This document shows, piece by piece, positions 1,790-19,547 of a stretch of 64,000 nt of DNA. Every line of letters starts with the position of its first letter. Within the stretch, counting starts at the first letter, position 1. The notes beneath the pieces were generated by a model. That model was given only the letters and a program-made list of their open reading frames with translations. It did not search any database and was not told the DNA's origin. The position numbers and the translations under genes were made by a program. The stretch is from the NCBI GenBank assembly GCA_965662575.1, contig CBFIHN010000002.1, positions 7,087 through 71,086 of the forward strand, given 5' to 3'. The stretch is from Gammaproteobacteria bacterium (GTDB lineage Bacteria > Pseudomonadota > Gammaproteobacteria > Francisellales > CACEW01).

Positions 1790-2761
1790 ATGAACTGGCA
1801 AGAAAAAATCTTACAATTTCTGCAAGGCAAAAAACGCTTAGATATCGACACGCAGCCCTTAGTTGTTTTACAACGTCATGAACAGGGTGTTGCGCTAGCA
1901 TTAGCTAAACCCGACACGCCTAACGAAGAAATTTACTCGCATTTCTTACTGAAGAAACGCAAAGAACAAAAGTTTCGCTCGGTAATCAAAAAGTTTTTTA
2001 AGAAGCAATCTATTGCTAACCCCATTTGCCAAACTATCTTGCCATTCGACGACTATCGATTGCTACTGCTCGATGCGCCCCAAGTGCCTGAAGAAGAAGT
2101 CCGTGAAGCCATCCAATGGCAATGCAAAGATCTTATTGACGGTTCAATTGATGACATGGTTATCGATGTTTTTCCTGTTGATGTCTTACCTGGCGCACCA
2201 AAACGCGTCTATGCCGTGATTGCCGAGCGCGCCAAACTGGAACAAGACCGAGGGATGTTTAAGAAAACAGAAATCGATCACACCGCGATTGGCATCAGTG
2301 AATTACCACTTAGTCGATTGATTACACGTCATGAACAGGACAAACCGATTGCCCTATTGTATGGCAACTTAAATTTACTCATTGCACAAAAAGGCCAGCT
2401 GCGTATGATGCGTCAGATTGGTCATCGTGAACAATTAGAAACCATTGATCAGCGTAAGGAATTACTTTCGGAACTGCTCACGTCATTTGAATTTTACCAG
2501 TCACAATTTTCTGATCACTTACCACAAGTTTTACTCGTCGCGCCTGATATTTTGAAAGATCACCACGAATTACTCTCTCAATTAAACGAAGAATTTACTC
2601 TGGCCGTCAAACCGCTTCAAACAGACGATATTATTCAGGGTTCACCAAAGCTTGAACTTGAATGCCTCGGTGTCTTTGCACATATGTGTTCTTGGCTACA
2701 TGATGAACGCCCAGCGCCTGAAGGTCAAAAAGAGGAGGAAGACAATGCAACAGAAAGTTGA
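1790..2761 (+). CDS. mshI: MSHA pilus biogenesis protein MshI-like (PilM-like assembly component)
   Basis: First gene of a co-directional, tightly packed operon whose later members are clearly MshJ/K/L/M/N/E/G. Size and position fit MshI. No motif was independently recognised. Confidence 0.55.
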   Translation: MNWQEKILQFLQGKKRLDIDTQPLVVLQRHEQGVALALAKPDTPNEEIYSHFLLKKRKEQKFRSVIKKFFKKQSIANPICQTILPFDDYRLLLLDAPQVPEEEVREAIQWQCKDLIDGSIDDMVIDVFPVDVLPGAPKRVYAVIAERAKLEQDRGMFKKTEIDHTAIGISELPLSRLITRHEQDKPIALLYGNLNLLIAQKGQLRMMRQIGHREQLETIDQRKELLSELLTSFEFYQSQFSDHLPQVLLVAPDILKDHHELLSQLNEEFTLAVKPLQTDDIIQGSPKLELECLGVFAHMCSWLHDERPAPEGQKEEEDNATES

Positions 2762-3347
2762 TTTTCTTGAATTTCTCCCTAAAGAAGTCAAAGTCTTTTT
2801 GTCACTGAATAAAATTGCCAGTACGGCGATTATTGTTACTGGGTTATTAGTTGCCTTGATGGTCGTAAATTTTTGGCAAAACCAGCAGCTTAAAAGCAGT
2901 GTTAAAAAAGCGCAGCAAGCTGAAGCGACAGCCAGTCAACAGCTACTGACGCTCACTCGCAAGTCCAAAGACTCGAGTAAAATCAAAGCCTTAAAAACCA
3001 GGGTTAATCAGCTTAGTGGTGAAGTAGAAGGTCAAAAAAATATTCTCAGACTTTATAAAGAAAAACAAGTTGCCTTAAGCGATGGTTTTGCTCAAGAGCT
3101 ACAAGCGTTGGCTGAAAATACATTAGAAGGAGCATGGCTTACGCAATTTAATCTACGATCTGGCCAAAACCGTGCCATGCAACTCAAAGGTGAAGCGCTG
3201 TCGACACAAGATGCTGTACGTTACCTGGATACCTTAAAAAAAGCAAAGCGATTGACGGGTTGGCGTTTTGAACTTGGTTCATTACGCCAAGCATCGGTAG
3301 ATGGTAAGTCAGTCACCTTATTTGATCTAAAGGCCATTTATGAATAA
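2745..3347 (+). CDS. PilN-like / MshI C-terminal-half-like bitopic pilus assembly protein
   Basis: AGGAGG precedes the ATG at 2745 (the track ORF begins at 2652). It has a short cytoplasmic N-terminus, one TM (IASTAIIVTGLLVALMVVNFW) and then coiled coil. It overlaps the upstream gene by 17 nt. Confidence 0.55.
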   Translation: MQQKVDFLEFLPKEVKVFLSLNKIASTAIIVTGLLVALMVVNFWQNQQLKSSVKKAQQAEATASQQLLTLTRKSKDSSKIKALKTRVNQLSGEVEGQKNILRLYKEKQVALSDGFAQELQALAENTLEGAWLTQFNLRSGQNRAMQLKGEALSTQDAVRYLDTLKKAKRLTGWRFELGSLRQASVDGKSVTLFDLKAIYE

Positions 3348-4008
3348 TCCACGCAGCAGCCTCGATCATTTACAACAACAGTGGCAGAAGGCCGCTAATA
3401 TTGTTAATGACCTTGCCATTCGAGATCGAGTGATTATCTTGGCCATTGTTATCGCGCTGGTTATCGGTATCATGCACTTGGCCAGCAATTTAACCTTAAG
3501 CAAAGAGCGTCTTCGCCTAGAAAAACAGCTGCAGCAAAGCCAAGAGAAAGTGGCGGTGATTCGCAAAAAAGCCGAGGCTATCGAGCGCACAATTATTGCG
3601 CCAGAAAAAACCAAAGAATATAAAGAACTGCAATCACTAGAAAAGAAAACGGACAACTGGTCTAAAGAAATTGATCAATTTCAAGGAAAAGCCATTAGCC
3701 AAGAAAAGCTCATTGAAATTTTACGTGAAGGCATTGATCGCCAACCCGATTTAAATTTGATTAGCATTAAAGTCCCTGACCCACGCATTTTATTTGCAAC
3801 ACAGCGCCAACAACTTTTGCAGCAGAGTGTGATGATTTCATTTACTGGACATTATTTTGCGACGTTAAATTACTTAAAAGCCATCAATGCCTTGAAACAA
3901 CCCATTTCCTGGGATGAACTGCAGTATCGCGTTGAGAAATATCCCAATGCCATGATTACGTTACGCATCCACACCCTAGGTTATCATGAAGGTAAAGATG
4001 ATGAATAA
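3340..4008 (+). CDS. mshJ: MSHA biogenesis protein MshJ (PilO-like)
   Basis: N-terminal TM (VIILAIVIALVIGIMHL) followed by coiled coil. It overlaps both neighbours, and its position in the operon matches Vibrio mshJ. Confidence 0.6.
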   Translation: MNNPRSSLDHLQQQWQKAANIVNDLAIRDRVIILAIVIALVIGIMHLASNLTLSKERLRLEKQLQQSQEKVAVIRKKAEAIERTIIAPEKTKEYKELQSLEKKTDNWSKEIDQFQGKAISQEKLIEILREGIDRQPDLNLISIKVPDPRILFATQRQQLLQQSVMISFTGHYFATLNYLKAINALKQPISWDELQYRVEKYPNAMITLRIHTLGYHEGKDDE

Positions 4009-4357
4009 CCGTATTGCTCACCGTCAGCTGATCTTACTGGCACTATGTTTTTTATTGCCATTACTTAGCCAAGCTCGACTTGTTGATCCAACTCGTCCGG
4101 CTGGCTATACCACCAAACGCATTTTATCGCCAGAACAGTTACGCCTTAGCTCGGTTATCATTGGCAAACACAGCAGAACCGCTGTCATCAATGGCAAACG
4201 TGTTGCCGTTGGTGATGAAGCGTTTGATATGACAGTACAATCTATTGCACCAACACAGGTTGTTTTGTCTAGTCAACGTCGGGGAAAATTTACTGTCAAA
4301 TTAATCAGCGAAGGCCGTCAGGCAGTCCAAAAAAAACCACTTAACCGATCATCCTAA
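3986..4357 (+). CDS. mshK: MSHA biogenesis protein MshK
   Basis: Small secreted protein with signal peptide LILLALCFLLPLLSQA followed by the DPTRP motif I associate with MshK. The real start may be the MMNN codons at about 3998. Confidence 0.6.
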   Translation: MKVKMMNNRIAHRQLILLALCFLLPLLSQARLVDPTRPAGYTTKRILSPEQLRLSSVIIGKHSRTAVINGKRVAVGDEAFDMTVQSIAPTQVVLSSQRRGKFTVKLISEGRQAVQKKPLNRSS

Positions 4358-4367
4358 GGGCGCATTT

Positions 4368-6059
4368 ATGATTAACAAACATTCTTTATTGGCCGGCATT
4401 TTAGTTTGTGGCTCAACCCTTGTGCTATCAGGCTGTGGCAACGTGATTGATAAGCCAGGAAATCCTACAATTTCCGCCATACAAAAAACGCTACAACAAG
4501 GAATGAAAGACAATCAACAGGTTGAAAAAAAACATCAGGCAATACCAGAGAATGTGCAACAAGCACTACTGCCTAAATTAACCTTGCCTCATGGCCAATT
4601 TATGCAAGTGGAGCCGCGCTTTGATGTATCTGCCGATAATATTGATGCACAAGAATTTTTCTTAGGGCTTGTGCATGATACGAAATACAATATTGTTGTT
4701 AGCCCAAGGATCACCGATAAAATTACTTTGCATTTAAAGGATGTCACGATTGAGCAAGTGTTATCCGCACTACATAATCTCTATGGCTATGTCTACAGCA
4801 AAACAGCGTATGGTTTTGAGGTAATGCCTAACCAATTGACGACACAGATGTTTAAAGTTAATTATATTGATGCCACCCGAACGGGCAGTTCTTATATTGC
4901 CGTACAATCTGGTTTAATTAGTCAACAGCAGCAAACCAGCACAAGTGAAACTGGCACCACATCAACGTCTAGTGAAGGTGTCGCAACACCAAGTAGTAGC
5001 ATTTCCACTAAAACTGAAGTCAATTTTTGGTCGCAGCTCAAAGAGGCGCTCACTGCCATTGTGGGCGATAAAGATGGTCATACCGTCTCAATTAATCCCG
5101 TGACAGGCATTGTCATTATTCGCACGTCCAATGACCAAATGCAGAAAGTGGGTGAGTACTTAGATACCTTGAATAGCATTGTGTCACGCCAAGTCTTGAT
5201 TCAAGCTGAAATTCTCCGCATCACGCTTAACAAAGGATTTCAATCAGGTATTAACTGGAGTAAGCTTGGTATATCACAAACGACCACCGGCAGCAGCGCG
5301 CCAACCACCCCGGGCGACTTCACTTCTGCCTTCACGTTAGATAAAACTTTTGGTGGTGTCGCAACGCTCGTTAAACTGCTCTCAACACAAGGCAATGTTC
5401 AGGTACTGTCTAGTCCTCGCATTGCGACTATCAATAATCAAAAAGCGATTATTAAAGTCGGTCAAGATGAATATTTTATTACCAAAGTATCAAGCACTGT
5501 CACTGGTGGTATTGATAGCCAAGCCACTCAAGATGTCACCATGGAGCCGTTCTTCTCTGGTATATCTTTGGCCGTTACCCCAACCATCATGTCAGATGAT
5601 CGTTTGATGTTACAGATTCACCCGATTATCAGCACAGTAAAAGACCAAAACAAGCAATTTACCATTGGTGGCCGTCAAGATAGCATTCCTTCTGCATTAA
5701 GCGAAGTTGATGAATCGGAAAACGTGGTTTATAGCAACTCTGGCCAATTGGTTATTTTAGGCGGATTGAGCAAAAATAGTACCGAAGAGGAAGCCAGCGG
5801 CGTTCCTTTCTTTAGTAAAATTCCATTCCTTGGAGCTTTATTCCGTGGTACCAAGCAAAACTCACAACGCCAAGAATTGGTCATTTTACTACGTCCAACG
5901 ATTATGAATGATAAAGCACTGGTACAGTCACTAGAACAAACCAATGCGCAATTTGAACGCGTCAATCAGGGATATCATCTTGGTAGTTTCCCTAATCGCT
6001 TTGGCACCCTGGGCGAGACACAAAATCTAGATGTCCGAAATAATAGGCAAGGGGCATAA
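4368..6059 (+). CDS. mshL: MSHA secretin MshL (GspD/PilQ-family secretin, lipoprotein-type)
   Basis: Lipobox LVLSGC. The C-terminal secretin core includes VLSSPRIATINNQKAIIKVGQDEYF and GVPFFSKIPFLGALFR. Confidence 0.9.
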   Translation: MINKHSLLAGILVCGSTLVLSGCGNVIDKPGNPTISAIQKTLQQGMKDNQQVEKKHQAIPENVQQALLPKLTLPHGQFMQVEPRFDVSADNIDAQEFFLGLVHDTKYNIVVSPRITDKITLHLKDVTIEQVLSALHNLYGYVYSKTAYGFEVMPNQLTTQMFKVNYIDATRTGSSYIAVQSGLISQQQQTSTSETGTTSTSSEGVATPSSSISTKTEVNFWSQLKEALTAIVGDKDGHTVSINPVTGIVIIRTSNDQMQKVGEYLDTLNSIVSRQVLIQAEILRITLNKGFQSGINWSKLGISQTTTGSSAPTTPGDFTSAFTLDKTFGGVATLVKLLSTQGNVQVLSSPRIATINNQKAIIKVGQDEYFITKVSSTVTGGIDSQATQDVTMEPFFSGISLAVTPTIMSDDRLMLQIHPIISTVKDQNKQFTIGGRQDSIPSALSEVDESENVVYSNSGQLVILGGLSKNSTEEEASGVPFFSKIPFLGALFRGTKQNSQRQELVILLRPTIMNDKALVQSLEQTNAQFERVNQGYHLGSFPNRFGTLGETQNLDVRNNRQGA

Positions 6060-6061
6060 GC

Positions 6062-6988
6062 ATGTATCTTAAGCACTTTGGGTTAGAGGAGCTGCCATTT
6101 AGCCTAACGCCCAATACGCAGTTTTTTTGTGAATTACCGAGCCATCATGATGCGCTCAAAGCCCTGCTATTTAGTATTGAGCACGGTGAGGGGTTTATTA
6201 AGTTGATTGGAGAAGTGGGGCTTGGTAAAACGTTGCTTTGCCGCAAAATCCTTGATTGCTTAGCCCAGCCTGATATCGTCACTGCCTATATCCCCAACCC
6301 TGATTTAACGCCACAGGAATTGCGCTTAGCCTTTGCCCGTGAGATTGGTTTACATCTTGACTCCGCGACGGATCAACATCAACTACAGCAAAAATTGACC
6401 GAACAATTGATTGTGATCAAACAGCAAGAAAAGCGAGTGGTGATTCTGATTGATGAGGCACAAGCAATGCCTGATCAAACATTGGAAACTCTGCGCTTAC
6501 TGACCAACCTTGAAACCGAGTCAGACAAATTGTTGCAGGTGATCTTGCTCGCACAACCTGAACTCGATCAGCGCCTAGAAAAAAGTCATTTGCGCCAATT
6601 ACAACAGCGAATTACATTTGCCCATCAATTGCGCCATTTGAATTTAGAAGAAACCCAAGCTTATGTTGTGCATCGCCTGTATACTGCAGGCTATCGTACT
6701 GGCTCCCCACTGTTTAGTAAAAAAGCGATGAAATTGCTTTATCGCTATAGTCAGGGCGTGCCACGAGCGATTAATATCTTGGCGCATAAAGCGCTATTGG
6801 TAACCTATGGCCTAGGCGCCCACACAATTAATGCGCGCGCCGTTGCCGCGGCGATATCCGATAGCTCTGGCGTCGTTAAGTCACTGAACACTCCACCAGT
6901 CAGAAACCGCTATTACTGGCTTGCAGGCATAGTGCTTGTCATGATAGTGATGGCGCTGATTAGCTATGACTTATTAATCCACACTTAG
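6062..6988 (+). CDS. mshM: MshM (ExeA-like AAA ATPase)
   Basis: N-terminus MYLKHFGLEELPFSLTPNTQFF, Walker A GEVGLGKT and Walker B VILIDEAQ. Confidence 0.85.
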   Translation: MYLKHFGLEELPFSLTPNTQFFCELPSHHDALKALLFSIEHGEGFIKLIGEVGLGKTLLCRKILDCLAQPDIVTAYIPNPDLTPQELRLAFAREIGLHLDSATDQHQLQQKLTEQLIVIKQQEKRVVILIDEAQAMPDQTLETLRLLTNLETESDKLLQVILLAQPELDQRLEKSHLRQLQQRITFAHQLRHLNLEETQAYVVHRLYTAGYRTGSPLFSKKAMKLLYRYSQGVPRAINILAHKALLVTYGLGAHTINARAVAAAISDSSGVVKSLNTPPVRNRYYWLAGIVLVMIVMALISYDLLIHT

Positions 6989-7030
6989 AGAAGCCATGTC
7001 ATTCACTTCCCTTATACGAGGAATATCATT

Positions 7031-8224
7031 GTGAGTTTACTCAATAATATGTTTAAAGATTTAGAAAAGCGCCGTGCAACAAAAGCTGACGAACAGGTGC
7101 CTGATGCTTTAAAAAGTTTTGCCAAGCGCAGATTACCTCGCTGGCTGCCCATCACAGTTATTTTAGTGATTGTTGTCGTGATTATTGTTGCCGTGTTACT
7201 GATTGATGCAAAATCAATTAACTCCAAGCCGGAGGAACTCTTAAAGCCTAAGGCCCTACAAATTAGGAACATGAAACCTAAAGTCACGGAAGTGAAACAG
7301 TTTGGTTGGAGTTATCAAAAAAATCTGGGGCTATTGACCATTTCTCTTTCCAAAGCGGCACACTATCAATTGGAACATGACGGTAATAAACGCCAGGTTA
7401 CTCTCATACTGTTGGATAGTCAGATGGGAAATATCAAACTACCTACCATTGAAGAGAATCCGTTGCTTGCTGCCATCAATGTGAGCAAAGCCAATAAAAC
7501 AGTAACGCTTAAATGTAAACTCAAAGAGCAAGTTCATCTACAGGCTATTGAGTTAACGCGTGGTAAAGGCAGTAAAATTTTAGTCAAAATTACGCCTTCC
7601 TCCGCAGCGTTGGAAAAAATTCAAGCAGAGGCAACAAAAGTACCACCAACTACAGAAGAACTTGCACTAATCGATTATGAGAAAGCGATAAAATTTGCAA
7701 ATAATGGTGATAAAAAACAGGCTATTAATTTACTTAATCAGTCTTTGTCTAAAAAAACAAATTTTTGGAAAGCGCGTGAAATACTAGCTACACTGCTATT
7801 AGAGCAAGGTAATTTTGCCAAAGCCAACCAGGTTATTGAAGCAGGCTTAACCATTAGCCCTGAGAATATTGCGCTGATTACACTCAAAGCACAGCGATTT
7901 GTTAAACAGCACCAAGACAAAGCAGCGCTTGCATTACTCAGACAGTTTTCACCAACCCTACGCAATCACACACAGTTTTATGGGTTGATTGCTGCACTTG
8001 AGCAAAAACTTGGTCACACCGAACTCGCTGGGGAATACTATGCCCAATTGGCCAAAGTAGAACCAAACCAAGCGAAGTGGTGGCTTGGCCGTGGCATTGC
8101 ATTAGAAGCACAAAATAAACGCCAGGCAGCTTACCAAGCGTATTACCAGGCAATGGTTGTGGGCGGGTTATCCCCTAACTTACAGGTCTTTATCCAATCA
8201 CGGATGAGCCGCCTGAAAGATTAA
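7031..8224 (+). CDS. mshN: MshN (TPR-repeat MSHA biogenesis protein)
   Basis: GTG start, one TM (WLPITVILVIVVVIIVAVLLI) and C-terminal TPR-like repeats (residues about 215-390). Its position lies between mshM and mshE. Confidence 0.7.
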   Translation: MSLLNNMFKDLEKRRATKADEQVPDALKSFAKRRLPRWLPITVILVIVVVIIVAVLLIDAKSINSKPEELLKPKALQIRNMKPKVTEVKQFGWSYQKNLGLLTISLSKAAHYQLEHDGNKRQVTLILLDSQMGNIKLPTIEENPLLAAINVSKANKTVTLKCKLKEQVHLQAIELTRGKGSKILVKITPSSAALEKIQAEATKVPPTTEELALIDYEKAIKFANNGDKKQAINLLNQSLSKKTNFWKAREILATLLLEQGNFAKANQVIEAGLTISPENIALITLKAQRFVKQHQDKAALALLRQFSPTLRNHTQFYGLIAALEQKLGHTELAGEYYAQLAKVEPNQAKWWLGRGIALEAQNKRQAAYQAYYQAMVVGGLSPNLQVFIQSRMSRLKD

Positions 8225-8241
8225 GGGCATGATGATGCCCT
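8224..8241 (+). other. Perfect 7-bp hairpin (AGGGCAT-gatg-ATGCCCT) between mshN and mshE
   Basis: Read directly. It overlaps the mshN stop codon. No T-tract follows, so it is not a classical terminator; it may be an intra-operon RNA element. Confidence 0.3.
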
Positions 8242-8253
8242 AGTGAGGGCTTC

Positions 8254-9939
8254 ATGGATCAAATAACACAACAAATTGGCCAGACACTCATCCAAGAAGG
8301 GGTGATGACACAAAGCACTTTTGATGAGCTCATTGCCAATTTAAAAGATAGTAAAGATAGCTTTGCCGATGCACTTGAGCGTCAGAAAATTTTATCGCGT
8401 CAAGACTATTTACAACGCGTGGCAACAATCTTTAACAAACCACTCTATAGTCTGAAAAATTACCATGTCGATTCAGGTATTTCACAACACTTAAACGAAG
8501 CTTATTCACGTCAATTTAAAGCCATTGTTGTTGCTGAAGATGACACTGGTTTAATTGTTGGCATGGCTAACCCTTTTGATTTGACCGCTATTGATGAATT
8601 AAAGCGTGTACTTCAACACCATTTCCAAATCGTCTTAATTGATGAACGAGAGCTGTTTAAAACATTAGATATTATCTACCGCCGTACCGGTGAGATTAGT
8701 GAATATGCTCATCAATTGACTTCTGAAATCACCACCGCTGCTGAACAAGAAAACCAAGAATCTGGCGAAGTTGATAGTACGGTGATTAAGCTGCTCAAAT
8801 CGATTTTTGAAGATGCCGTGCAAGTGGGTGCATCAGATATCCATATTGAACCCGATGAATATACGCTACGTATACGCCTACGGGTTGATGGGGTCTTGCA
8901 AGAACAACAGATCAATGAAAAAAGGGTGGCCAATGCTTTAGTCGTTCGGCTAAAACTGATGGCAAATTTAGATATTGCCGAACGCCGCTTACCACAAGAT
9001 GGTCGCTTGAAAATTAATGTTCAGAACCGGCGTGTTGATATTCGTCTTTCTACCCTGCCAACACAATTTGGTGAAAGTGCGGTTATGCGGCTACTCGACA
9101 AAGAAAAAAGTTTACTTGATCTCGATAAACTTGGCATGCCCGAGGATATTGAACAACGCTTTCACCGTGCATTAAGTATGCCCAATGGTATTATTCTCAT
9201 TACTGGTCCAACTGGTAGTGGTAAAACGACGACACTCTATAGTGCATTAACCCAACTGAATGTTCCTGAAAAAAAAATCTTTACAGTTGAAGATCCGATT
9301 GAATATAGCCTAGAGCGAATTAATCAAGTCCAAGTGAACACCAAAGTTGGCCTAACCTTTGCTGAAGTGCTGCGTTCTACGCTGCGTCAAGACCCTGACA
9401 TTATTATGCTTGGTGAGATGCGTGATCATGAAACGGCTGACATTGCGATTCGTGCAGCACTAACCGGCCATTTGGTCCTATCAACTTTGCATACTAACGA
9501 TTCGGCCAGTAGTGCTTTTCGTTTGGTTAATATGGATATCGATGGCTTCCTGGTCGCGGCAACCTTGCGCGCAGTTTTAGCACAACGATTGCTGCGTCGA
9601 GTCTGCGAATACTGTCGAGCCAAGCAATCACTCAGTGACGCTGACAAAATGTGGGTCAGTCAATTGCGTCCTGGATTGAGACTGAATGGTGATCAATTTG
9701 TCCAGGGTGAAGGTTGTTCGCACTGTAATAATAGTGGTTATTCTGGACGAATCGGGATTTATGAATTACTCGAGCTTGATCAACAAATGATGAAGGCCTT
9801 AAGCGCCAATGATTCTAATGCATTTAATGATCATGCCTATAAAGTATTAGAAGGAAAACTATTAATCGATCAGGCGTTTAGTTTGGCATTATCTGGCCAT
9901 ACCAGCCTGGAAGAAGTGATGCGGGTGTTTGGTGAGTAA
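8254..9939 (+). CDS. mshE: MSHA pilus extension ATPase MshE (GspE/PilB family)
   Basis: Walker A GPTGSGKTTT, the Asp/His-box region, and the tetracysteine motif CEYC...CSHC typical of GspE-type ATPases. An MshEN-like N-terminal domain is present. Confidence 0.9.
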   Translation: MDQITQQIGQTLIQEGVMTQSTFDELIANLKDSKDSFADALERQKILSRQDYLQRVATIFNKPLYSLKNYHVDSGISQHLNEAYSRQFKAIVVAEDDTGLIVGMANPFDLTAIDELKRVLQHHFQIVLIDERELFKTLDIIYRRTGEISEYAHQLTSEITTAAEQENQESGEVDSTVIKLLKSIFEDAVQVGASDIHIEPDEYTLRIRLRVDGVLQEQQINEKRVANALVVRLKLMANLDIAERRLPQDGRLKINVQNRRVDIRLSTLPTQFGESAVMRLLDKEKSLLDLDKLGMPEDIEQRFHRALSMPNGIILITGPTGSGKTTTLYSALTQLNVPEKKIFTVEDPIEYSLERINQVQVNTKVGLTFAEVLRSTLRQDPDIIMLGEMRDHETADIAIRAALTGHLVLSTLHTNDSASSAFRLVNMDIDGFLVAATLRAVLAQRLLRRVCEYCRAKQSLSDADKMWVSQLRPGLRLNGDQFVQGEGCSHCNNSGYSGRIGIYELLELDQQMMKALSANDSNAFNDHAYKVLEGKLLIDQAFSLALSGHTSLEEVMRVFGE

Positions 9940-9967
9940 CACGCATAACGGCTGAGAGGGGAACACC

Positions 9968-11188
9968 ATGCCAATATTCCATTACCGTGCTTGTAATGAC
10001 AAACAGGAAATTATTAGCGGCTCCTTAGAGGCAAGGGAAAAAATGTCAGTTGCCAACAACCTGATACAAAAGGGGCTAACACCAATCTCAATTACTGTTG
10101 AGAAGAAAGTCTTCTCACTATCACAGCTACTGTCTCTTGAAATCAGCAAGGAGAAAGTGAAAACGGATGAACTCATTATGTTCTGCCGACAAATGTATAG
10201 TTTAACCAAGGCTGGTGTACCACTCCTTGAGTCTTTACGCAAACTCGCTGAGACCACACGTGGAAAACGCTTACGCTTAAGTCTACTGGAGCTGGAAACT
10301 GAAATTGCACAAGGCCAATCATTTAGCGATAGCTTGGCTAAGCTTCCTGATGTCTTCCCAACAATTTTTGTTAGTGTGGTTAAAGCGGGTGAACAAAGTG
10401 GTCAGATGGAAATTGCGTTTGAGCGATTAGCTGCCCACTTCGAGCTTGACGCAAAAACCAAAAAAAAAGTCACCTCTGCCACACGTTATCCACTGATGGT
10501 TATTGGTGTTTTGGTGGTGGCATTTGGTGTGATTAATTTTATGGTTGTTCCTGCTTTTGCGGATATGTTTTCACAATTTCAACAAGATCTACCTATTGTT
10601 ACTCGAGCTTTAATGGGTATGTCGAATTTCCTAATAGGTAATTGGCTTATTTTATTGGTTCTACTTGGCATTATTATTTTTGCCGTGCGTTTTTATTTGA
10701 AGCTTCCCTCCGGCCGATATAGTTGGGATAAAGCCAAGCTCAATATGCCCTTATTTGGTCCGATTATTTACCGAGTGATTATTGCTCGCTTTGCACGGAT
10801 CTTCGATATGTTGGTGAAGTCGGGCGTGCCAATTGTTGACAGTATTAACTTAGTATCTGCCGTATTAGGCAACACTTACATGATCCAATCAATTCAACAC
10901 ATGGGTAAATCTGTTGAAGGGGGTGATAGTTTGACCAAGGCAGCCAAAGAGGCCGATGTTTTCTCACCCATCGCATTACAAATGCTCTCTGTAGGTGAAG
11001 AAGCCGGGATGCTCAATGATATGTTGTCGGAAATTGCGGACTACTATGAGCGAGAAGTTGACTATGACCTAGATCGCCTGGGAGACCTCATCGAACCGAT
11101 CCTTTTAGCAGTGCTTGGCATTATGGTGTTATTGATTGCATTGGGCGTATTTTTGCCTATGTGGAACATGACGAGCTTTTTGTCATGA
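9968..11188 (+). CDS. mshG: MSHA platform protein MshG (GspF/PilC family)
   Basis: 406 aa with a duplicated GspF-type domain and three TM blocks. It sits directly downstream of mshE. Confidence 0.9.
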   Translation: MPIFHYRACNDKQEIISGSLEAREKMSVANNLIQKGLTPISITVEKKVFSLSQLLSLEISKEKVKTDELIMFCRQMYSLTKAGVPLLESLRKLAETTRGKRLRLSLLELETEIAQGQSFSDSLAKLPDVFPTIFVSVVKAGEQSGQMEIAFERLAAHFELDAKTKKKVTSATRYPLMVIGVLVVAFGVINFMVVPAFADMFSQFQQDLPIVTRALMGMSNFLIGNWLILLVLLGIIIFAVRFYLKLPSGRYSWDKAKLNMPLFGPIIYRVIIARFARIFDMLVKSGVPIVDSINLVSAVLGNTYMIQSIQHMGKSVEGGDSLTKAAKEADVFSPIALQMLSVGEEAGMLNDMLSEIADYYEREVDYDLDRLGDLIEPILLAVLGIMVLLIALGVFLPMWNMTSFLS

Positions 11189-11619
11189 GTAGCTATCACC
11201 ATTTGTGTGTCAAGCACGGTCATCAATCTGGCAATCTAAAACATGAACACGGCTACAGTCTGATCGAGCTGATTATTTTTATCGTTGTCCTCGGTATTAT
11301 TGGTGTTTCATTGCTAATGGGCTTAAATACCGCACTGAAAAAATTACCCAATATTCAACACTATGACACCGCGCTGAATTTGGCTCAAGGTCGCTTGGCC
11401 TTTGTCACTAGTCAAAGCTTGTTCCGGGGGTTTAACAGTCTCTCCGATCCATGCGCATCAACCCCAACTCTGCCCATTTGTAGTACCCCAACAGGCTACA
11501 CCGTTAGCTCAACGATTACCAATAACTGGGGAAGTCAAAGCGATTATAAATTAGTGACTGTATCCGTTACGGGTATGGGCCAAGCCAGCCTATCGCAATT
11601 GGTGACCAATTATGACTAG
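11185..11619 (+). CDS. Prepilin-type protein (type IV pilin-like) with a long His-rich leader
   Basis: The ATG at 11185 overlaps the mshG stop (ATGA). Cleavage/methylation motif HG|YSLIELIIFIVVLGIIG with Glu at +5, and a Cys pair DPCASTPTLPIC. Confidence 0.75.
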   Translation: MSSYHHLCVKHGHQSGNLKHEHGYSLIELIIFIVVLGIIGVSLLMGLNTALKKLPNIQHYDTALNLAQGRLAFVTSQSLFRGFNSLSDPCASTPTLPICSTPTGYTVSSTITNNWGSQSDYKLVTVSVTGMGQASLSQLVTNYD

Positions 11620-12133
11620 TCATCACTCAGAAAATACACCTCGCGAAAAAGGCTTTACGCTTGTTGAACTTGTGATTACCATGATTCTAATTGGCGTTAT
11701 TTCAACAGTGGTTGGGCCATTGCTTTATGAAGGTGTGACCAATTTTAAAAAAGCACATGCGCTGGAGTCTTTGTCTTCTCAGGGAAGATCAACGTTGGAA
11801 TTGATGGCTCAGGATGTTCGCAATATTGGCGCGGAACTGAGTCATACGCTTATCAGTATGAATGCAAATCAACTTAGTATGGAAAATATGTACGACCAAA
11901 CGATTAGTTTTTCCCTCTCTGGTAGCGATTTAATTCGTACTATTGATGGCAATAACCAAAATTTAGCAGAGGATGTTAGTAGCTTAAGTTTTAGCTACTA
12001 CAATGTGAATGGGCAAACAACAGCAACCACAGCTGATGTGCGGTATATCAAGCTTGGATTGAGTTTAACTAAAGAAGGTTTGTCACAGCATTTTGAAACC
12101 ATTGTTGCATTAAGAAATGCCGTGTTAGGGTAA
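11612..12133 (+). CDS. Prepilin-type minor pilin-like protein
   Basis: Motif EKG|FTLVELVITMILIGVISTVV. It overlaps the upstream pilin gene by 8 nt. Confidence 0.75.
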   Translation: MTSHHSENTPREKGFTLVELVITMILIGVISTVVGPLLYEGVTNFKKAHALESLSSQGRSTLELMAQDVRNIGAELSHTLISMNANQLSMENMYDQTISFSLSGSDLIRTIDGNNQNLAEDVSSLSFSYYNVNGQTTATTADVRYIKLGLSLTKEGLSQHFETIVALRNAVLG

Positions 12134-12182
12134 CCAACGACTGGGTTAACCCTTCAGCTGAAAAAGACTAGAGGAGTAAGCG

Positions 12183-13799
12183 ATGACAATGCTTAAGCCA
12201 CAAAAAAATCAGCAGGGATTGATGCTCGTTGCTGCCTTGGTTTTGGTCATTATTCTGGGTGTGGTTGCAGTTATTGTTGCCCGCATTGCAACAACTGATT
12301 TAGCCGCTAGTAGCGAACAAGCTGATGCTGTTGATGCGTTTGCCATCGCTAATAGTGGGTTAGAGCGCGCTGTCTATGAGTTATCTCGGGTAGATCCATC
12401 TGACCGCACAGCCTGTGCAGATTTAGCCGGCACTTTTGGTACACAAAATTTTGGTCATGGTCAATACAATATTAGCGGGACGCATTATCATCCAACAGGT
12501 GTGACATTGTCAGTTAATATATTAGCCGCTAGTACAATCGCGCCAATTAGTACACTATCTGGCGTTGCTCCAGCCGGCCAAGTGCGCATTGGTCGTGAAT
12601 ACATTAACTACGGTGGCACAGGTTCAACTAGCGCAGGTTGTGGCGGCGGCTCTGCTCCATGCTTAACAGGCTTGGTCCGCGGTGTGCAAAACACAGTGGC
12701 TAGTGCTCATAGCAATGGCGAAAGCGTTTATCAAGATCAGTGTGTTGTTCGCTCAGAAGCTGGTGTGCCCAACTTAAGCTCTCCTGATGCAAAAAGAACC
12801 CTGGATGCAATAATGATCGCCTATGAAAGTGCCTGGGTGGTTGGTGACACCTTTAACAGCAATGCGACAACTGGCTATTGGGAAAGCCAAAGCTGGAACT
12901 ACCAAGCGCCTTCTCCTGCTATAAACAATAACCTCAATGATGTTTTTTGTTTAAATAATCAAGACTGCTGGGCTGTCGGTGATAACCGCACTTTCCTACA
13001 CTGGGATGGCGCTAGTTGGAGTGCTGGCAATGTCAGAACTTTCGGTCTATTTAGCGCGGTACCTTATGTTGATTTCCAAAGTGTTTACTGCGTTAATAGC
13101 AATGAATGCTGGGCTGTGGGTGACCGGAGTTGGTTGCTTTCAAGCATTGCCTACTGGAATGGCACCATTTGGAGCCGCGTATTTCCCTTTAGTCTTCGTA
13201 GTGAAGATTTGATCAGTGTCACTTGTGCTGCCAGTAATAGCTGCTGGGCCGTCGGTGATGACCGTATTTTTTATTACTTTAATGGTGCCCTATGGTATGA
13301 CGGTTTTGTCGATATTTTTGGTGCCGATGCTGTGCCTTATGAAAACTATACAGGTGTGTCATGTATTGATAGCGGCGATTGCTGGGCTGTTGGCCAAGAT
13401 GGCGCTCTAGCCTATTGGAACGGCAGTATTTGGCGCGGGGACTTATCAGTCGTGCCAAGTAGTGATTATTATGCTGTTAATTGTAGTGCAACCGATGACT
13501 GTTGGGCTGTGGGTGAAGTCTCCAGTGGCGATCCACTCATCATTTACTGGAATGGCAGTAGCTGGCAGCGAGAACCTGAGGCACAAATGGACAGTGTGCC
13601 TGTCGTTAACCTCTACGATATTGATTGTTCTGCCAGTGATAACTGTTGGGCTTCAGGGGCCAGTGGTGCTCTGATTCATTGGGACGGCACTGACTGGAGC
13701 GGTAACGTCACAAGCAATCTACCCACTGTTGCTCTCAGAGGATTAAGCATTCTGCGCGCGGATCGACCAAGACCGGCTGGTTTTTGGCAGCAGATTTAG
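12183..13799 (+). CDS. PilX-N/MshP-like pilin-like N-terminus fused to a 7-blade Cys-pair beta-propeller (candidate tip adhesin)
   Basis: N-terminus QQG|LMLVAALVLVIILGVVAVIVARIATTDL (hydrophobic pilin-like helix without Glu5). Residues about 215-525 carry seven repeats of about 45 aa of the form C-x5-CWAVGD-x6-9-(Y/H)W(N/D)G-x2-W. Confidence 0.6.
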   Translation: MTMLKPQKNQQGLMLVAALVLVIILGVVAVIVARIATTDLAASSEQADAVDAFAIANSGLERAVYELSRVDPSDRTACADLAGTFGTQNFGHGQYNISGTHYHPTGVTLSVNILAASTIAPISTLSGVAPAGQVRIGREYINYGGTGSTSAGCGGGSAPCLTGLVRGVQNTVASAHSNGESVYQDQCVVRSEAGVPNLSSPDAKRTLDAIMIAYESAWVVGDTFNSNATTGYWESQSWNYQAPSPAINNNLNDVFCLNNQDCWAVGDNRTFLHWDGASWSAGNVRTFGLFSAVPYVDFQSVYCVNSNECWAVGDRSWLLSSIAYWNGTIWSRVFPFSLRSEDLISVTCAASNSCWAVGDDRIFYYFNGALWYDGFVDIFGADAVPYENYTGVSCIDSGDCWAVGQDGALAYWNGSIWRGDLSVVPSSDYYAVNCSATDDCWAVGEVSSGDPLIIYWNGSSWQREPEAQMDSVPVVNLYDIDCSASDNCWASGASGALIHWDGTDWSGNVTSNLPTVALRGLSILRADRPRPAGFWQQI

Positions 13800-13830: not shown

Positions 13831-14295
13831 TTATGCGCTTGGCTTATTGCAAAGAGTCATATTTCGTCGCACAGTTTTTATTTGCTCAGTGCTTGCAGTT
13901 TTTAGAGCCTGATGAAAATAAGCTTGTGCTAATGAATAATGCTTTTGCTGACACAGAAAGATGGCATAACCATTTAAAATATCAGGGTTATTTGGCGATA
14001 GATCTAATGCCTGTTCAAACTGCACTCGCGCAGCCTGATTATTTTTGGTATGAATCAGATAATTTGCTTTGGCATAGTGTGCCATCGCTGATTGTGGGTT
14101 TTGCTGCAAAGCTTGATTAAGCTTGATGTTGGCTAAGCTCCAGTGGCCGTCTTTCATATAATCAAAAGCTAGCTCTGTGAAAATATCTGAAGCCGTGTTG
14201 GGATTTTTTTTCGTAATGACTTCGGTGCACTGACAAAGCGATAGCGCGAAACAAGTCAACAGGGTACGTGTGATGAATATTAGACAAATACGCAT
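13831..14295 (-). CDS. Small TPR-repeat lipoprotein (PilF/PilW-like)
   Basis: Signal/lipobox-like N-terminus (TCFALSLCQC) and TPR-like repeats (ALQQNPQSAMAHYAKANYL, ALDLSPNNPDILNGYAIFL). It is convergent with the msh operon. Confidence 0.5.
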   Translation of the reverse strand: MRICLIFITRTLLTCFALSLCQCTEVITKKNPNTASDIFTELAFDYMKDGHWSLANIKLNQALQQNPQSAMAHYAKANYLIHTKNNQAARVQFEQALDLSPNNPDILNGYAIFLCQQKHYSLAQAYFHQALKTASTEQIKTVRRNMTLCNKPSA

Positions 14296-15799: not shown

Positions 15800-16804
15800 T
15801 TATTGTCGGTGATCATCAATTTTTTTTGCTTGCCAGTGAGCAACAACTTGTTCTACTTGTTTAGGTTTAATGAGATACATTTCTTGTTTGCCATCAATGT
15901 TGCCACTGGCTGACAAGCTTTGGGCTTGTGAACCAAGTGGCCCCCAGCGTGTAACAGATTTTAGAGGCTCTGCTGGAAATAACCCTAAGCAGCACGTGCC
16001 AAGTGACGCCGCAATATGGAGCGGGCCGGTACTACCAATAACCATGCCATCGATATGTGCCAGTAAAACGATAAGTTCATTCAGCGTCAGTTGTCCCATG
16101 ATGTTAATTGCTTGAGGGCATGGCTCAATAATCGATTGGTGAAATCTTTGTTTTTCTTGATTTGTTCCTGTGATCAATACATGAATATTTTTTTTATTGG
16201 CCCATTGGATCAGCTTGACAAAATACTCGCTTGGCCATTCTTTGGTGTTGCCTTGTGAGCCCGGATGGATAATCAAATTGAACTTTTTACTATCCATTAG
16301 TTTGGCAACACGATTGGTCAATTTGGGCTTTTGTATCGTCGTTAAGGCAGTTAGCTCTTGAAGGGAATAGTCGCTGCGCAGACCAAGTCCCGATAAAAGT
16401 TTCATATTGAGTTGTGCTTCGTGTTGCGAAGACCGTGACCGACTGAGATTGACTAAGCGGTTACAATATAGCCAATGAGGTAATCGGCGATTGGTGCCAA
16501 CCCGCTGAGAAATCCCCGCTTTTTTGCATAACTTGGCTAATAGTTTATTGGGTGTAATATGGATAACAGCATCTAAATGAAGTTGTTTAAGGTAAGTGAT
16601 AGCATGTTGTGTTTCAAGCTTTTCAAGTTCTTCTAGTGCAATAAATTGTTGAATCTGAGGGTAGTGTGTGATGACTGCACGGACATACTCACGGCCAAGG
16701 AAGACAAGCTGACTATTGGTGATGGTCACTTTAAGGGCGCCAGCAACTGGTAAACTTAGGATAACATCACCAATATGGTCAGTACGAATCAGGAGTATAC
16801 GCAT
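15800..16804 (-). CDS. Glycosyltransferase family 9 (LPS heptosyltransferase-like)
   Basis: N-terminus MRILLIRTDHIGDVILSLPV is typical of GT9. Its start overlaps the stop of the upstream gene (TAATG). Confidence 0.75.
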   Translation of the reverse strand: MRILLIRTDHIGDVILSLPVAGALKVTITNSQLVFLGREYVRAVITHYPQIQQFIALEELEKLETQHAITYLKQLHLDAVIHITPNKLLAKLCKKAGISQRVGTNRRLPHWLYCNRLVNLSRSRSSQHEAQLNMKLLSGLGLRSDYSLQELTALTTIQKPKLTNRVAKLMDSKKFNLIIHPGSQGNTKEWPSEYFVKLIQWANKKNIHVLITGTNQEKQRFHQSIIEPCPQAINIMGQLTLNELIVLLAHIDGMVIGSTGPLHIAASLGTCCLGLFPAEPLKSVTRWGPLGSQAQSLSASGNIDGKQEMYLIKPKQVEQVVAHWQAKKIDDHRQ

Positions 16805-18627
16805 TAATGTCCTCGGCGTTTTTGATAATATTGGCGGTAGAAGGTACTGCTTTTTTTCCAGAATTTAAACCAGTGGTCACTGGGAAACATATTGACACGA
16901 AATATTTCAAATAGATCATCTTCAATATGCATACCACCATTGTCTGTTGCCACAGCACAACTAAATCCAGCTTTTTGAGTGAGTGCTTTCATTGTTTGGT
17001 TGTAATTGCCAAAAGGGTAGGCAAAGCTAACAATGGGAATGTTAAATTCTTTCTCGAGAGCCGTTTTACTTTGTTTAATTTCTCGATAAGCATTGTTGTC
17101 ATCGAGTTCAGTTAGTTTGGCATGCGTCATTGTATGTGCGCCAATCTCCATGCCATTGTCGAGCAATTGTTGTAGTTGTTGTCGAGACATGAGTGCATCT
17201 AGCTGTTGCTCATCATCTCGATCCCAATCGTTATTGCGAATGCCGCGATCACCCAGAATAAACCAGGTTGCTTTGAAGTGGTACTTTTTCAGTAGGGGTA
17301 GAGCATAATCAAGATTATTCTGATATCCATCATCAAAAGTAATCATAATCGGCTTTTTAGGGAAGTTTTTTAATGATCGTTTTCCATTGCGATAGGCGCA
17401 GTATTCGCCGAGTGTTAGTGTGCTGAATCCTCTGAGTTTTAATGACTTTAATTGCGTCTCAAAGCGTGCTTTATCAACAAATGTTCGGTGATGGTAGGTT
17501 TTATCGTCATCGGTGATTTTATGATACATCAAGATGGGGATATGTTTTGGATGGTAGTGGCGCATACGTGTGCTGAGGTATAAGTCCATGATTTTTGGGT
17601 AAACATAATGACTGGAATACTGTTTGACAATTGTTTTAATTAATGTTTTCGAAATGGGCTTGTTACGATTGAGTGTTTTTATCAGGTCGTTATAAACAGC
17701 TTGATATTCAATGACAGCATATTTCTCCTGTATATCAATATCGCCAAAGTTAGATGCGATGGCTTGCTCAAGTGTTTTTGAGTTAATTAATCCACTATAG
17801 CAACCTTCGCCTAACGCCAATACCGGTCGGCCAAGCATTAATGCTTCAATCGCAATGCGCCCAGCAGCGATCACACATGTCGCCGAGGCCAGATATTCGG
17901 GTAAATTTTTAACAAAGCCTATGTTGATAATTCGCTCAGGATAGGTGGTGCTCAACATGTTGAACTGTCGTTGGCCGGCAGCGGGTAAATCTTGAATTTT
18001 ACCGCCAATGAGTTGGATCTGTATGCTAGGATATGCGTTGAGAATAGTCTCAGCCAGGTGCTGTAAAAATTCACTCGTACGCCTTCCTTTGGCGCCGGTT
18101 GTGCGTCCAGCGATGATTAACTTTTGTACTGCACTATATTCAGTTGTGTCATCAGAGTTCAGATCGACTAAATTGGGGATGACAGCAATACGTTGTTGAT
18201 CTATTTTTAATGGTGTCATTTGCTGTTTGATATTGTCACAAACAGCAATAGCTGCATCGCCGTAGCAGTTAAATAGTTTTTTGCCTAGGCGTGGTGACTG
18301 CCGGCCGTGAATCGTTGAGATACAGGGTATGTGAGCAAGTTTCGCAGCAATAGACGCCACCCAACTTGCCGCACGTGAGTGAGCATGCACGATGTCAATA
18401 TGATGTTGACTCATCATTCGATGCAAGGATTTGATATTGCGGATACGGCTGGTCAAACGTCGGTTATCAATATTGAGAGAAAGATATTTCGCTTGAGTAG
18501 CTGAATGGAGTTGATCTGAACAAATAAAGACATGATGGCCTTTGCTAATTTGCTGCTCGGCTAGGGCAATGGCATAACTCTCAGCGCCAGTGAGTTCGAG
18601 TTGAGATAAAACATGAAGAATATTCAC
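16804..18627 (-). CDS. Fusion protein: GT4 glycosyltransferase (N-terminal) plus NodB-type polysaccharide deacetylase CE4 (C-terminal)
   Basis: N-terminus MNILHVLSQLELTGAESYAIALA (GT4-like). The C-terminal half carries ILMYHKI, TFDDGYQNN and HTMTHAKL (NodB Asp-Asp and His-x-x-x-His motifs). Confidence 0.75.
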   Translation of the reverse strand: MNILHVLSQLELTGAESYAIALAEQQISKGHHVFICSDQLHSATQAKYLSLNIDNRRLTSRIRNIKSLHRMMSQHHIDIVHAHSRAASWVASIAAKLAHIPCISTIHGRQSPRLGKKLFNCYGDAAIAVCDNIKQQMTPLKIDQQRIAVIPNLVDLNSDDTTEYSAVQKLIIAGRTTGAKGRRTSEFLQHLAETILNAYPSIQIQLIGGKIQDLPAAGQRQFNMLSTTYPERIINIGFVKNLPEYLASATCVIAAGRIAIEALMLGRPVLALGEGCYSGLINSKTLEQAIASNFGDIDIQEKYAVIEYQAVYNDLIKTLNRNKPISKTLIKTIVKQYSSHYVYPKIMDLYLSTRMRHYHPKHIPILMYHKITDDDKTYHHRTFVDKARFETQLKSLKLRGFSTLTLGEYCAYRNGKRSLKNFPKKPIMITFDDGYQNNLDYALPLLKKYHFKATWFILGDRGIRNNDWDRDDEQQLDALMSRQQLQQLLDNGMEIGAHTMTHAKLTELDDNNAYREIKQSKTALEKEFNIPIVSFAYPFGNYNQTMKALTQKAGFSCAVATDNGGMHIEDDLFEIFRVNMFPSDHWFKFWKKSSTFYRQYYQKRRGH

Positions 18628-18916
18628 AGCACAGAGAAGTCATGATTTTTGTTGATATTACTGTGAATGGATAAAATTTTCCAGGTAGCTAGTAGCTAAT
18701 ATATGGGCAAATAAAAGGGTTAAAAATTAGACAAAAGATTTTATTTTGGCTAAAATATAAGCATAAGTTATCATATATCTAAGTTTGGTTGAATAGATGA
18801 GTCTGTCCTCATCCCCGTGCAGGTGGGAACAAAATCTCATTGAATATCAACCAATTAGGTGCGGCCCCAAATGCTAGTTATCAATTTGTGGCAAATGGAT
18901 TTGAGAGATACAATGA

Positions 18917-19471: not shown

Positions 19472-19547
19472 TTGACCTATCATGTCATTTAGTTTCTTTG
19501 TCGGTGCTTGTGATAAGATGACTAATTTTACAGTCAATTAAACGAAA

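Follow-up and report, generated by a model that had tools for sequence, protein, structure and literature searches.

A probable PilX/GspK-like minor pilin with a predicted internal seven-bladed beta-propeller closes an MSHA-type pilus gene cluster in a gammaproteobacterium

A 64,000-nucleotide stretch of DNA from a Gammaproteobacteria bacterium (assembly GCA_965662575.1, contig CBFIHN010000002.1, positions 7,087 to 71,086), referred to below as the window and having a GC content of 42%, was analysed computationally with focus on the gene at positions 12183..13799 of its forward strand. The 538-aa product of this gene is likely the capping minor pilin, equivalent to GspK, PilX and MshP, of a mannose-sensitive haemagglutinin (MSHA)-type pilus, with an adhesin domain contained in the same chain. 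The original prediction, made from the sequence prior to this analysis, had described the gene as a PilX/MshP-type N-terminus grafted onto a seven-bladed propeller at the end of an msh operon.

The open reading frame (ORF) starts with ATG, is preceded at a distance of 7 nt by the Shine-Dalgarno sequence GAGGAG and contains every motif that had been quoted for it. A scan for promoters and terminators around the gene gave no signal above shuffled expectation. The seven repeats of about 45 aa were likewise recovered as seven units of 40–48 aa, in which W, G, W and P columns are invariant when the units are aligned. The pattern C-x5-CWA[VS]G occurs six times in the protein, starting at aa 256, 303, 348, 394, 434 and 482, and [YH][WF][DNE][GS]xxW occurs seven times, starting at aa 232, 273, 324, 365, 411, 455 and 499. 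As the former consists of six exact copies of an 11-residue pattern its repetition is not due to chance. The first unit lacks the Cys pair and reads AWVVGD...YWESQSW; the protein has 16 Cys in total. The gene and the parts of its product are as follows, with the line of evidence for each in brackets.

12183..13799, + strand: gene for the 538-aa PilX/GspK/MshP-type minor pilin with a predicted internal seven-bladed propeller (ORF, AlphaFold2, homologues)
12183..12218, + strand, aa 1-12: class III (prepilin-type) leader MTMLKPQKNQQG with an invariant terminal Gly (56-member alignment, PDB profile match)
12219..12383, + strand, aa 13-67: helix alpha1, with hydrophobic alpha1N (13-33) followed by amphipathic alpha1C; PilX_N region (DSSP, Pfam)
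12384..12788, + strand, aa 68-202: globular portion of the pilin module, in which the Cys pairs C78/C187 and C153/C160 are conserved (AlphaFold2, alignment, covariation)
12495..12737, + strand, aa ~105-185: embedded beta sub-domain of ~85 aa, IDxExIxY...RGxxGTxAxxH (hmmsearch, Foldseek against BFVD)
12789..13712, + strand, aa 203-510: predicted seven-bladed beta-propeller with a C-x5-C pair on the A-B hairpin in blades 2-7 (AlphaFold2, Foldseek, Pfam, repeat alignment)
13713..13796, + strand, aa 511-538: C-terminal element with strands 518-524 and 530-537 and the tail W535-Q-Q-I (DSSP, conservation, covariation)

The nature of the N-terminus was evaluated in an alignment of 56 full-length homologues that are 30–44% identical. 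Gly12, which ends the 12-aa leader as predicted, is invariant (56/56) and closes a leader that is short and rich in K, R and Q throughout the family. The mature +1 residue is F or Y in 46 of the 56 proteins and is followed by L-L-I, while position +5 is occupied by V, A, S, T, I or L and in no case by Glu. Because the Gly is invariant, +1 is mostly F/Y and +5 is never Glu, the N-terminus bears the signature of GspK/PilX/MshP capping pilins and not that of a Sec signal. The terminal GspK/PilX subunit is known to lack Glu5, and PilX without Glu5 caps the filament (bioRxiv 10.64898/2026.02.12.705559). As regards the PilX/MshP-type N-terminus originally proposed, hits of the Pfam model PilX_N (PF14341) at E<=0.01 were obtained in 19 of the 56 members, the lowest E being 2.4e-6, but the window protein itself stays below the Pfam cutoff; a fragment, P0139, scores 25.7 bits against the model. 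A profile of the N-module, i.e. the first ~200 residues, was compared with all PDB sequences and matched nothing but type IV pilins, namely PilA 9laa (E 0.0086) and MshA 9lab (E 0.035), in each case through leader and alpha1N. The Pfam model N_methyl has no match on the 538-aa protein, in contrast to both pilins encoded upstream. A hydrophobic helix of 25 aa had been anticipated; the helix was found but not its length, as the uncharged stretch covers 21 aa (13-33) and the predicted helix spans residues 9-67 in the whole protein and 8-67 in the N-module modelled alone (DSSP). Since the invariant Gly begins a hydrophobic helix that runs on for 59 residues, an ordinary signal peptide cleaved by LepB, which had been named as an observation that would overturn the prediction, is very unlikely.

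The alignment of 56 homologues was also used as input for AlphaFold2. The resulting model has a predicted local distance difference test score (pLDDT) of 92.3 and a predicted TM-score (pTM) of 0.80, with most of the propeller at pLDDT >90. The following elements were assigned in the model by DSSP.

aa 9-67: single long helix
aa 87-195: small beta region
aa 203 to ~506: seven blades of four strands each
aa 518-524 and 530-537: two extra strands

The model thereby supports the folding of the repeats into a closed seven-bladed propeller, as had been predicted. In a Foldseek search of the PDB the best matches were structures of seven-bladed Ycf48 (5ojr, 5ojp and 2xbg; E 3e-11 to 7e-10, TM(target) 0.60-0.62), followed by propellers of WD40 type. 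PilY1 was absent from the top 50 PDB fold matches, and homology of the modelled propeller to PilY1 is not supported. The Pfam model PSII_BNR matches the 538-aa protein with 29.9 bits at a cutoff of 27 and matches 11 of the 56 members; outside the N-terminus the members' Pfam matches are to Rax2, DUF2510, PSII_BNR and DUF6087. Orthology to Ycf48 was rejected, the NCBIfam equivalog NF010237 scoring 21.2 bits against a cutoff of 326, and the similarity is one of fold only. In the 56-member alignment the Cys pairs of blades 3-7 vary little or not at all, and in the model they sit on both strands of the first (A-B) hairpin of each blade. In an exported protein such pairs likely form disulfides. The pTM of 0.80 for a chain of several domains further suggests that the domains are held in a fixed arrangement. 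Propeller-only relatives occur in Bathyarchaeia, Anaerolineae and Chloroflexia and were the sole matches of a single-protein genome scan.

The propeller does not form the end of the chain. It is followed by the two extra strands and by a family C-terminus of the form ...W-[QRE]-[EQ]..., with W535 present in at least 90% of members. The occurrence of this tail was counted in 121 proteins, 95 with and 26 without a pilin-like N-terminus. It was found in 85 of the former and in no genuine case among the latter, and the 10 tail-less exceptions are mostly fragments, near-misses (...FWQN) and false pilin calls. Tail and pilin N-terminus are kept together in proteins of ~400-460 aa, of 538 aa and of ~870-900 aa, the last with a double propeller, while propeller relatives with Sec-like or other N-termini end in ...FYRAxxP, dockerin-like or transmembrane tails. 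Covariation was calculated by mean-field direct coupling analysis (DCA) of 135 sequences (126 effective) over 28,227 pairs. Contacts within domains were recovered, including C153-C160 as the second strongest pair, 134-161 and the hairpin 133/142 and 135/140. Two pairs between the C-terminal element and the pilin module, I523-A116 and I523-V70, ranked 17 and 25, a signal that is weak and does not suffice to place the C-terminal strands. Together with the way the tail tracks the pilin module and the high pTM of the model, this weak covariation suggests that the tail packs at the junction of propeller and pilin module. Moreover, as both the two strands and the W-x-E tail come after the propeller and track the pilin module, the propeller was probably inserted before the C-terminal element rather than appended to the pilin. 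The original wording, in which the pilin part is grafted onto the propeller, thus holds as regards the union of the two in one chain, but the appended topology that it implied is probably wrong.

The gene closes a co-directional cluster at 1790..13799 and is the terminal gene of this putative msh operon, as had been stated. The cluster was examined by Pfam and NCBIfam scans, and the genes around the 538-aa pilin gene are the following.

1790..11188, + strand: MSHA-type machinery, comprising an unassigned 323-aa ORF, PilN-like and T2SSM-like proteins, a 123-aa ORF, MshL-type secretin, AAA_22 protein (MshM-like), tetratricopeptide repeat (TPR) protein (MshN-like), ATPase with MshEN domain and GspF-type platform protein
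11161..11619, + strand: GspI/PilV/MshD-like small minor pilin, ~122 aa when mature, with a leader that ends in ...HEHG before YSLIE (N_methyl E 3.9e-5; ComGE E 0.0062, weak)
11612..12133, + strand: GspJ/PilW/MshO-like minor pilin, 173 aa, with a leader that ends in ...REKG before FTLVE (N_methyl E 3e-7)
13831..14295, - strand: convergent PilW/PilF-type TPR lipoprotein, 154 aa (TIGR02521 E 6.3e-32, 111 bits, below the cutoff of 154)

Judged by these domain matches the cluster is of MSHA type. The best model for the secretin is MshL TIGR02519 with 240 bits, just below the cutoff of 250.2, followed at a distance by GspD with 150 bits; ATPase and platform protein score nearly equally against GspE/GspF and PilB/PilC models. 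Proteins of GspC/L type were not detected in the cluster by the Pfam and NCBIfam scans. The best NCBIfam equivalog-type match of the 173-aa pilin is ComGF (E 3.5e-6), far below the cutoff. GspI/J/K correspond to MshD/O/P (PMC13533445), and, ComGE being the equivalent of GspI and ComGF that of GspJ, the ComGE-like and ComGF-like matches of the two window pilins agree with this correspondence. For the small pilin the listed GTG start gives a leader of 26 residues and an overlap of 28 nt with the platform gene; its true start probably lies further downstream, near the ...HEHG cleavage motif. The 154-aa TPR lipoprotein is likely a pilus-biogenesis accessory and, with a TIGR02521 match spanning ~145 of 234 model positions, may be a short or truncated pilotin-like protein. 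No large MshQ/PilY1-like gene adjoins the pilin genes in the window.

The gene context was also read at five related loci, which are listed with the homologue, the genes that precede it and the type of the system.

L007: P0002, 539 aa, the closest relative (44% identity); preceded by 133-aa and 164-aa pilins; convergent MSHA-type operon
L001 (10001-13266): P0010, two tandem 538-aa paralogues; preceded by 125-aa and 165-aa pilins; convergent MSHA-type operon
L008: P0056, 577 aa, last gene, on a 2.4-Mb contig; preceded by six pilin genes; MSHA-type, same operon
L010: P0088, 453 aa; preceded by a 124-aa pilin, a GspH-like pilin and 132-aa and 173-aa pilins; MSHA-type, same operon
L009 (10001-12613): P0008, 870 aa, double propeller; preceded by pilin genes; PilM/N/O (type IVa pilus-like) and secretin

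In L001, L007, L008 and L010 the homologue comes after pilin genes equal in size to those of the window; in L007 and L010 these were shown to be orthologous. The 133-aa and 164-aa pilins of L007 share 50% and 38% identity with the two pilins of the window and occupy the same positions, and the GspJ-like pilin directly upstream of the homologue in L010 is 31% identical to the window's 173-aa pilin. The gene order in L010 is major pilin, GspH, I, J, K, resembling the G-H-I-J-K order of the type II secretion system (T2SS). In L007, L008 and L010 extra pilins directly follow the platform gene. As in the window, a large MshQ/PilY1-like gene adjoins the pilins in none of the five loci. The two paralogues of L001 both possess the pilin N-terminus and end in a W-Q-E-I tail but have diverged from one another, which suggests that they serve as alternative pilus tips. 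The pilin gene directly upstream of P0008 in L009 carries the annotation of a Y1 transposase domain.

These results can be placed in a model of pilus assembly. The class III signal would insert the 538-aa protein into the inner membrane, where prepilin peptidase would cleave after Gly12. Because it lacks Glu5 the capping pilin would sit at the very top of the filament and, together with the GspI-like and GspJ-like pilins encoded upstream, would make up a trimeric priming complex beneath which the pilus grows. The tip would show the Cys-rich seven-bladed propeller outward as a binding head, and the C-terminal strands with the W-x-E tail would fold back to the pilin-module junction. The propeller is probably the adhesive head of the pilus and would stand in for a separate PilY1/MshQ adhesin; its ligand is probably a glycan or a surface polymer, as suggested by the Cys-stapled and Trp-rich propeller, the tandem diverged paralogues and the variable number of blades. 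PilK/PilX/MshP receive a C-terminal strand from PilY1 and MshQ, and CpaL provides its own in cis (PMC13533445); the tail described here probably does in cis what the PilY1/MshQ strand does in trans. In a further step, which is somewhat less likely than not, the protein would be a single-chain equivalent of PilX-PilY1 (MshP-MshQ), in which the W-x-E strand downstream of the inserted propeller would come back to the pilin module and provide, from within the chain, the 'licensing' strand for priming-complex assembly. No separate tip adhesin would then be needed in the MSHA-type pili of many uncultured Gammaproteobacteria, and swapping or duplicating the propeller, as in the versions with 5, 7 and 14 blades and in the tandem paralogues, would retarget the pilus.

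The part of the pilin module that follows the helix is confidently modelled, residues 1-202 alone reaching a pLDDT of 95.2, and contains the invariant residues G132, E139, R166 and H176. It is a composite, as it holds a separate domain of ~85 aa that is common to phage tail fibres and giant repeat proteins. Using hmmsearch, the region of this sub-domain (profile positions ~95-183) was found in 4-27 tandem copies in proteins of ~620-7600 aa. Foldseek against BFVD gave 44 matches at E<=1e-3 (best 1.3e-6) to predicted phage tail-fibre-like, tip-attachment and structural proteins, with 78-99 columns aligned at 2.2-4.4 Å in the compact ones. The sub-domain is modelled in neither Pfam nor PHROGs, and PHROGs is likewise without a match to the whole pilin module. 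Many family members have a C-x-G-x-A-P-C loop in the sub-domain, where simpler ones have 'SGNxF'.

Several observations weigh against the protein being a capping pilin of this kind. The window protein has Leu at +1, the sole Leu among the 56 members, and its own PilX_N match (aa 11-61; E 0.0054, 17.1 bits) falls below the Pfam cutoff of 25.5. Foldseek did not match the globular pilin module significantly to GspK, PilX or any other pilin of solved structure, so a canonical pilin fold is not demonstrated for it; its best E was 6e-3 and its top matches were N-terminal domains of phage capsid, baseplate and tailspike proteins. Among the top DCA scores, pairs between tail and pilin module were not enriched overall. 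Finally, the 64-kb window, in which not every ORF was scanned, yielded neither a recognisable prepilin peptidase nor genes for a major pilin, a GspH-like pilin or any MshA/B/C/D-type pilin, and the pilus system may be incomplete or reduced here or split across the genome.

Some of these points would fit a bitopic inner-membrane/periplasmic assembly factor, which would retain an uncleaved signal-anchor, hold its propeller in the periplasm and aid or regulate the MSHA-type machine without ever entering the fibre. The Leu at +1, the sub-threshold PilX_N score and the pilin module that resembles no solved pilin fold are in line with such a protein, as is the fact that Ycf48, the nearest fold, is an assembly factor. 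We nevertheless regard this as unlikely. The invariant Gly, F/Y at +1 and a short basic leader constitute a prepilin-peptidase signature for which a signal-anchor has no need, and several loci have the gene in the place of GspK, behind the genes for I-like and J-like pilins. The conserved hairpin pairs, with twelve Cys in all, are in keeping with a disulfide-stabilised domain that is exposed, and tandem diverged paralogues such as those of L001 fit variable binding heads better than a part of the machine.

It is also improbable that the protein forms the tip of a short periplasmic pseudopilus in a T2SS-like system, with the propeller binding cargo or the secretin instead of an external surface. 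GspK too lacks Glu5 and has an inserted domain (PMC8179133), G-H-I-J-K is the order of T2SS pseudopilin genes, and the ATPase and platform protein have GspE/GspF scores only slightly below those for PilB/PilC. The secretin, however, is clearly best matched by MshL (240 bits against 150 for GspD), and the cluster contains the MSHA-specific AAA_22 and TPR proteins and the MshEN domain and is without detected GspC/L-type proteins. In addition, ~35 kDa of propeller would be bulky for a piston that works within the vestibule of the secretin.

The remaining two alternatives are both very improbable. A tip adhesin that is not a pilin but a diverged PilY1/PilC or MshQ orthologue would explain the last position after the minor pilins, as held by PilY1 and MshQ (PMC13533445), and the seven-bladed propeller in which PilY1 also ends (PMC11623550), but the window protein has a pilin-type N-terminus of its own, MshQ has ~1200 aa (PMC13533445) compared to 538 aa here, no PilY1/PilC Pfam match (Neisseria_PilC) was obtained in 56 members at E<=0.01 and PilY1 is outside the top 50 folds. 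A Sec-exported soluble propeller lectin with a signal peptide removed by LepB, for which the Sec-like N-termini of the non-pilin propeller relatives P0070, P0084 and P0108 would speak, is largely refuted by the 21-aa hydrophobic stretch running on as one helix to residue 67, the position of invariant G12 at the start and not the end of the hydrophobic region, the conserved ~190-aa module after the helix and the pilin genes that flank the gene in all loci read.

A capping pilin with its own propeller is not without precedent. In Saccharibacteria TM7x (Nanosynbacter lyticus), the T4P-2 pilus has a minor pilin of PilX type, PilX2, in which a non-canonical signal is followed by seven propeller blades of RCC1 repeats; PilX2 is the proposed tip adhesin, and its deletion lowers host binding (PMC11623550). 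The present family resembles PilX2 in combining a PilX-type N-terminus with seven blades, but differs in that none of the 56 members has an RCC1 Pfam match, in belonging to an MSHA-type, Gram-negative system where PilX2 belongs to the cell-wall-only pilus of monoderm-type Patescibacteria, and in having the W-x-E tail and the phage-like sub-domain, neither of which is reported for PilX2. With GspK, PilX, PilK and MshP the protein shares the prepilin leader, Gly-1, the lack of Glu5 and the last position after I-like and J-like pilins (PMC13533445; bioRxiv 10.64898/2026.02.12.705559), and with GspK also an extra inserted domain (PMC8179133). Past the N-terminal helix there is no sequence or fold match between GspK/PilX/MshP and the window protein, and MshP and proteobacterial PilX, unlike the latter, are small and have their adhesin supplied by a separate MshQ or PilY1. 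PilY1/PilC are similar in their seven-bladed tip propeller and their gene position after minor pilins, PilY1 docking to PilX/PilK by its extreme C-terminal strand; they are, however, non-pilins without a class III signal and show no detectable sequence similarity to the window protein, the fold of which is nearer to Ycf48.

A bulky domain placed before the final strand of a tip pilin-like protein, the topology proposed here, is likewise known. Cyanobacterial PilX, with a beta-solenoid, and Thermus ComZ carry a solenoid before the last strand (bioRxiv 10.64898/2026.02.12.705559), and Caulobacter CpaL bears an adhesin domain and supplies its pilin-like domain with a strand from its own C-terminus (PMC13533445); all three are proposed to replace PilY1. 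These proteins have a beta-solenoid or other domain in place of the propeller and belong to type IVa/Com and Tad pili. Ycf48/HCF136, the photosystem II assembly factor, and other BNR-like propellers share the seven blades and a PSII_BNR score just above cutoff, but not the C-x5-CWAVG signature, the pilin context or the non-photosynthetic host. In placing a binding module next to a pilin module at the tip, the family is also akin to modular pilins such as Streptococcus sanguinis PilB (von Willebrand factor A domain) and PilC (lectin) (Raynaud et al. 2021). The survey of modular pilins in that study required the IPR012902 N-methylation motif and would have overlooked the present family, which has no Glu5 and hence no such motif. 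The original prediction assumed that the known propeller-bearing tip adhesins are not pilins and that the modular pilins known so far have different domains grafted on, and thereby overstated the novelty, given the propeller of TM7x PilX2 and the other bulky domains of cyanobacterial PilX, ComZ and CpaL. Propeller- and solenoid-bearing PilX proteins are already described and no new principle is involved; the present family differs from these in its Ycf48-like C-x5-CWAVG propeller, in its pilus class (MSHA-type pili of Gammaproteobacteria) and in a pilin module that contains a phage-like sub-domain.

The family is sizeable. Out of 8000 scored candidates, 540 were homologues at E<=1e-3, and an exhaustive profile search at E<=1e-30 gave no fewer than 370 clusters, formed at 50% identity, with the full pilin module. 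Of the 150 best matches with full profile coverage, the majority have 500-600 aa. Versions with a double propeller (~14 blades, 850-900 aa) and shorter ones (~390-460 aa) occur, for instance P0006, P0008, P0025, P0053, P0169 and P0226, and all of these keep the type of N-module and the tail. Natural versions without a propeller were considered and rejected, since the module-only proteins of 208-241 aa are contig-end or frameshift fragments. Source annotations of members read 'hypothetical protein' or 'PilX', there is no dedicated Pfam or NCBIfam model, and full-text literature searches gave no paper describing the family. An already characterised MshQ or MshP family, membership of which the original prediction had named as grounds for its refutation, was not matched in the Pfam and NCBIfam libraries scanned, and neither was PilY1. 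No outcome that the original prediction had listed as refuting was observed.

Further genes of the window were observed outside the cluster. The DnaK encoded in the window shares no more than 83% identity with any other database protein, and its named matches at 75-79% identity belong to Gammaproteobacteria MAGs, Thiotrichales, Francisellaceae and Coxiellaceae, in line with an uncultured gammaproteobacterium as the source. A 2162-aa ORF at 30187-36675 (+) has no Pfam match at 1e-5. The 1063-aa protein encoded at 36949-40140 (+), with BNR/Sortilin-Vps10/Ycf48-like propeller repeats and a match of F510_1955-type glycosylhydrolase, is a second and unrelated propeller protein. A 253-aa protein at 19548-20309 (+) contains a DXD-motif glycosyltransferase region with a weak match to the TcdA/TcdB catalytic domain (E 8e-4) and lies within a block of lipopolysaccharide/polysaccharide glycosyltransferase genes at 15800-20309.

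Both the start of type IV pilus growth and the recognition of surfaces hinge on the tip complex, and according to a recent proposal the C-terminal strand of the tip adhesin licenses the priming complex. The family constitutes a compact natural test case in this respect, as capping pilin, binding propeller and C-terminal element are found in one chain in MSHA-type systems without an adjoining MshQ. If the proposed model were true, the family and MshQ/PilY1 would be mutually exclusive within a cluster. Annotation of the family would mend many 'hypothetical protein' calls and would flag candidate adhesins in uncultured Gammaproteobacteria.

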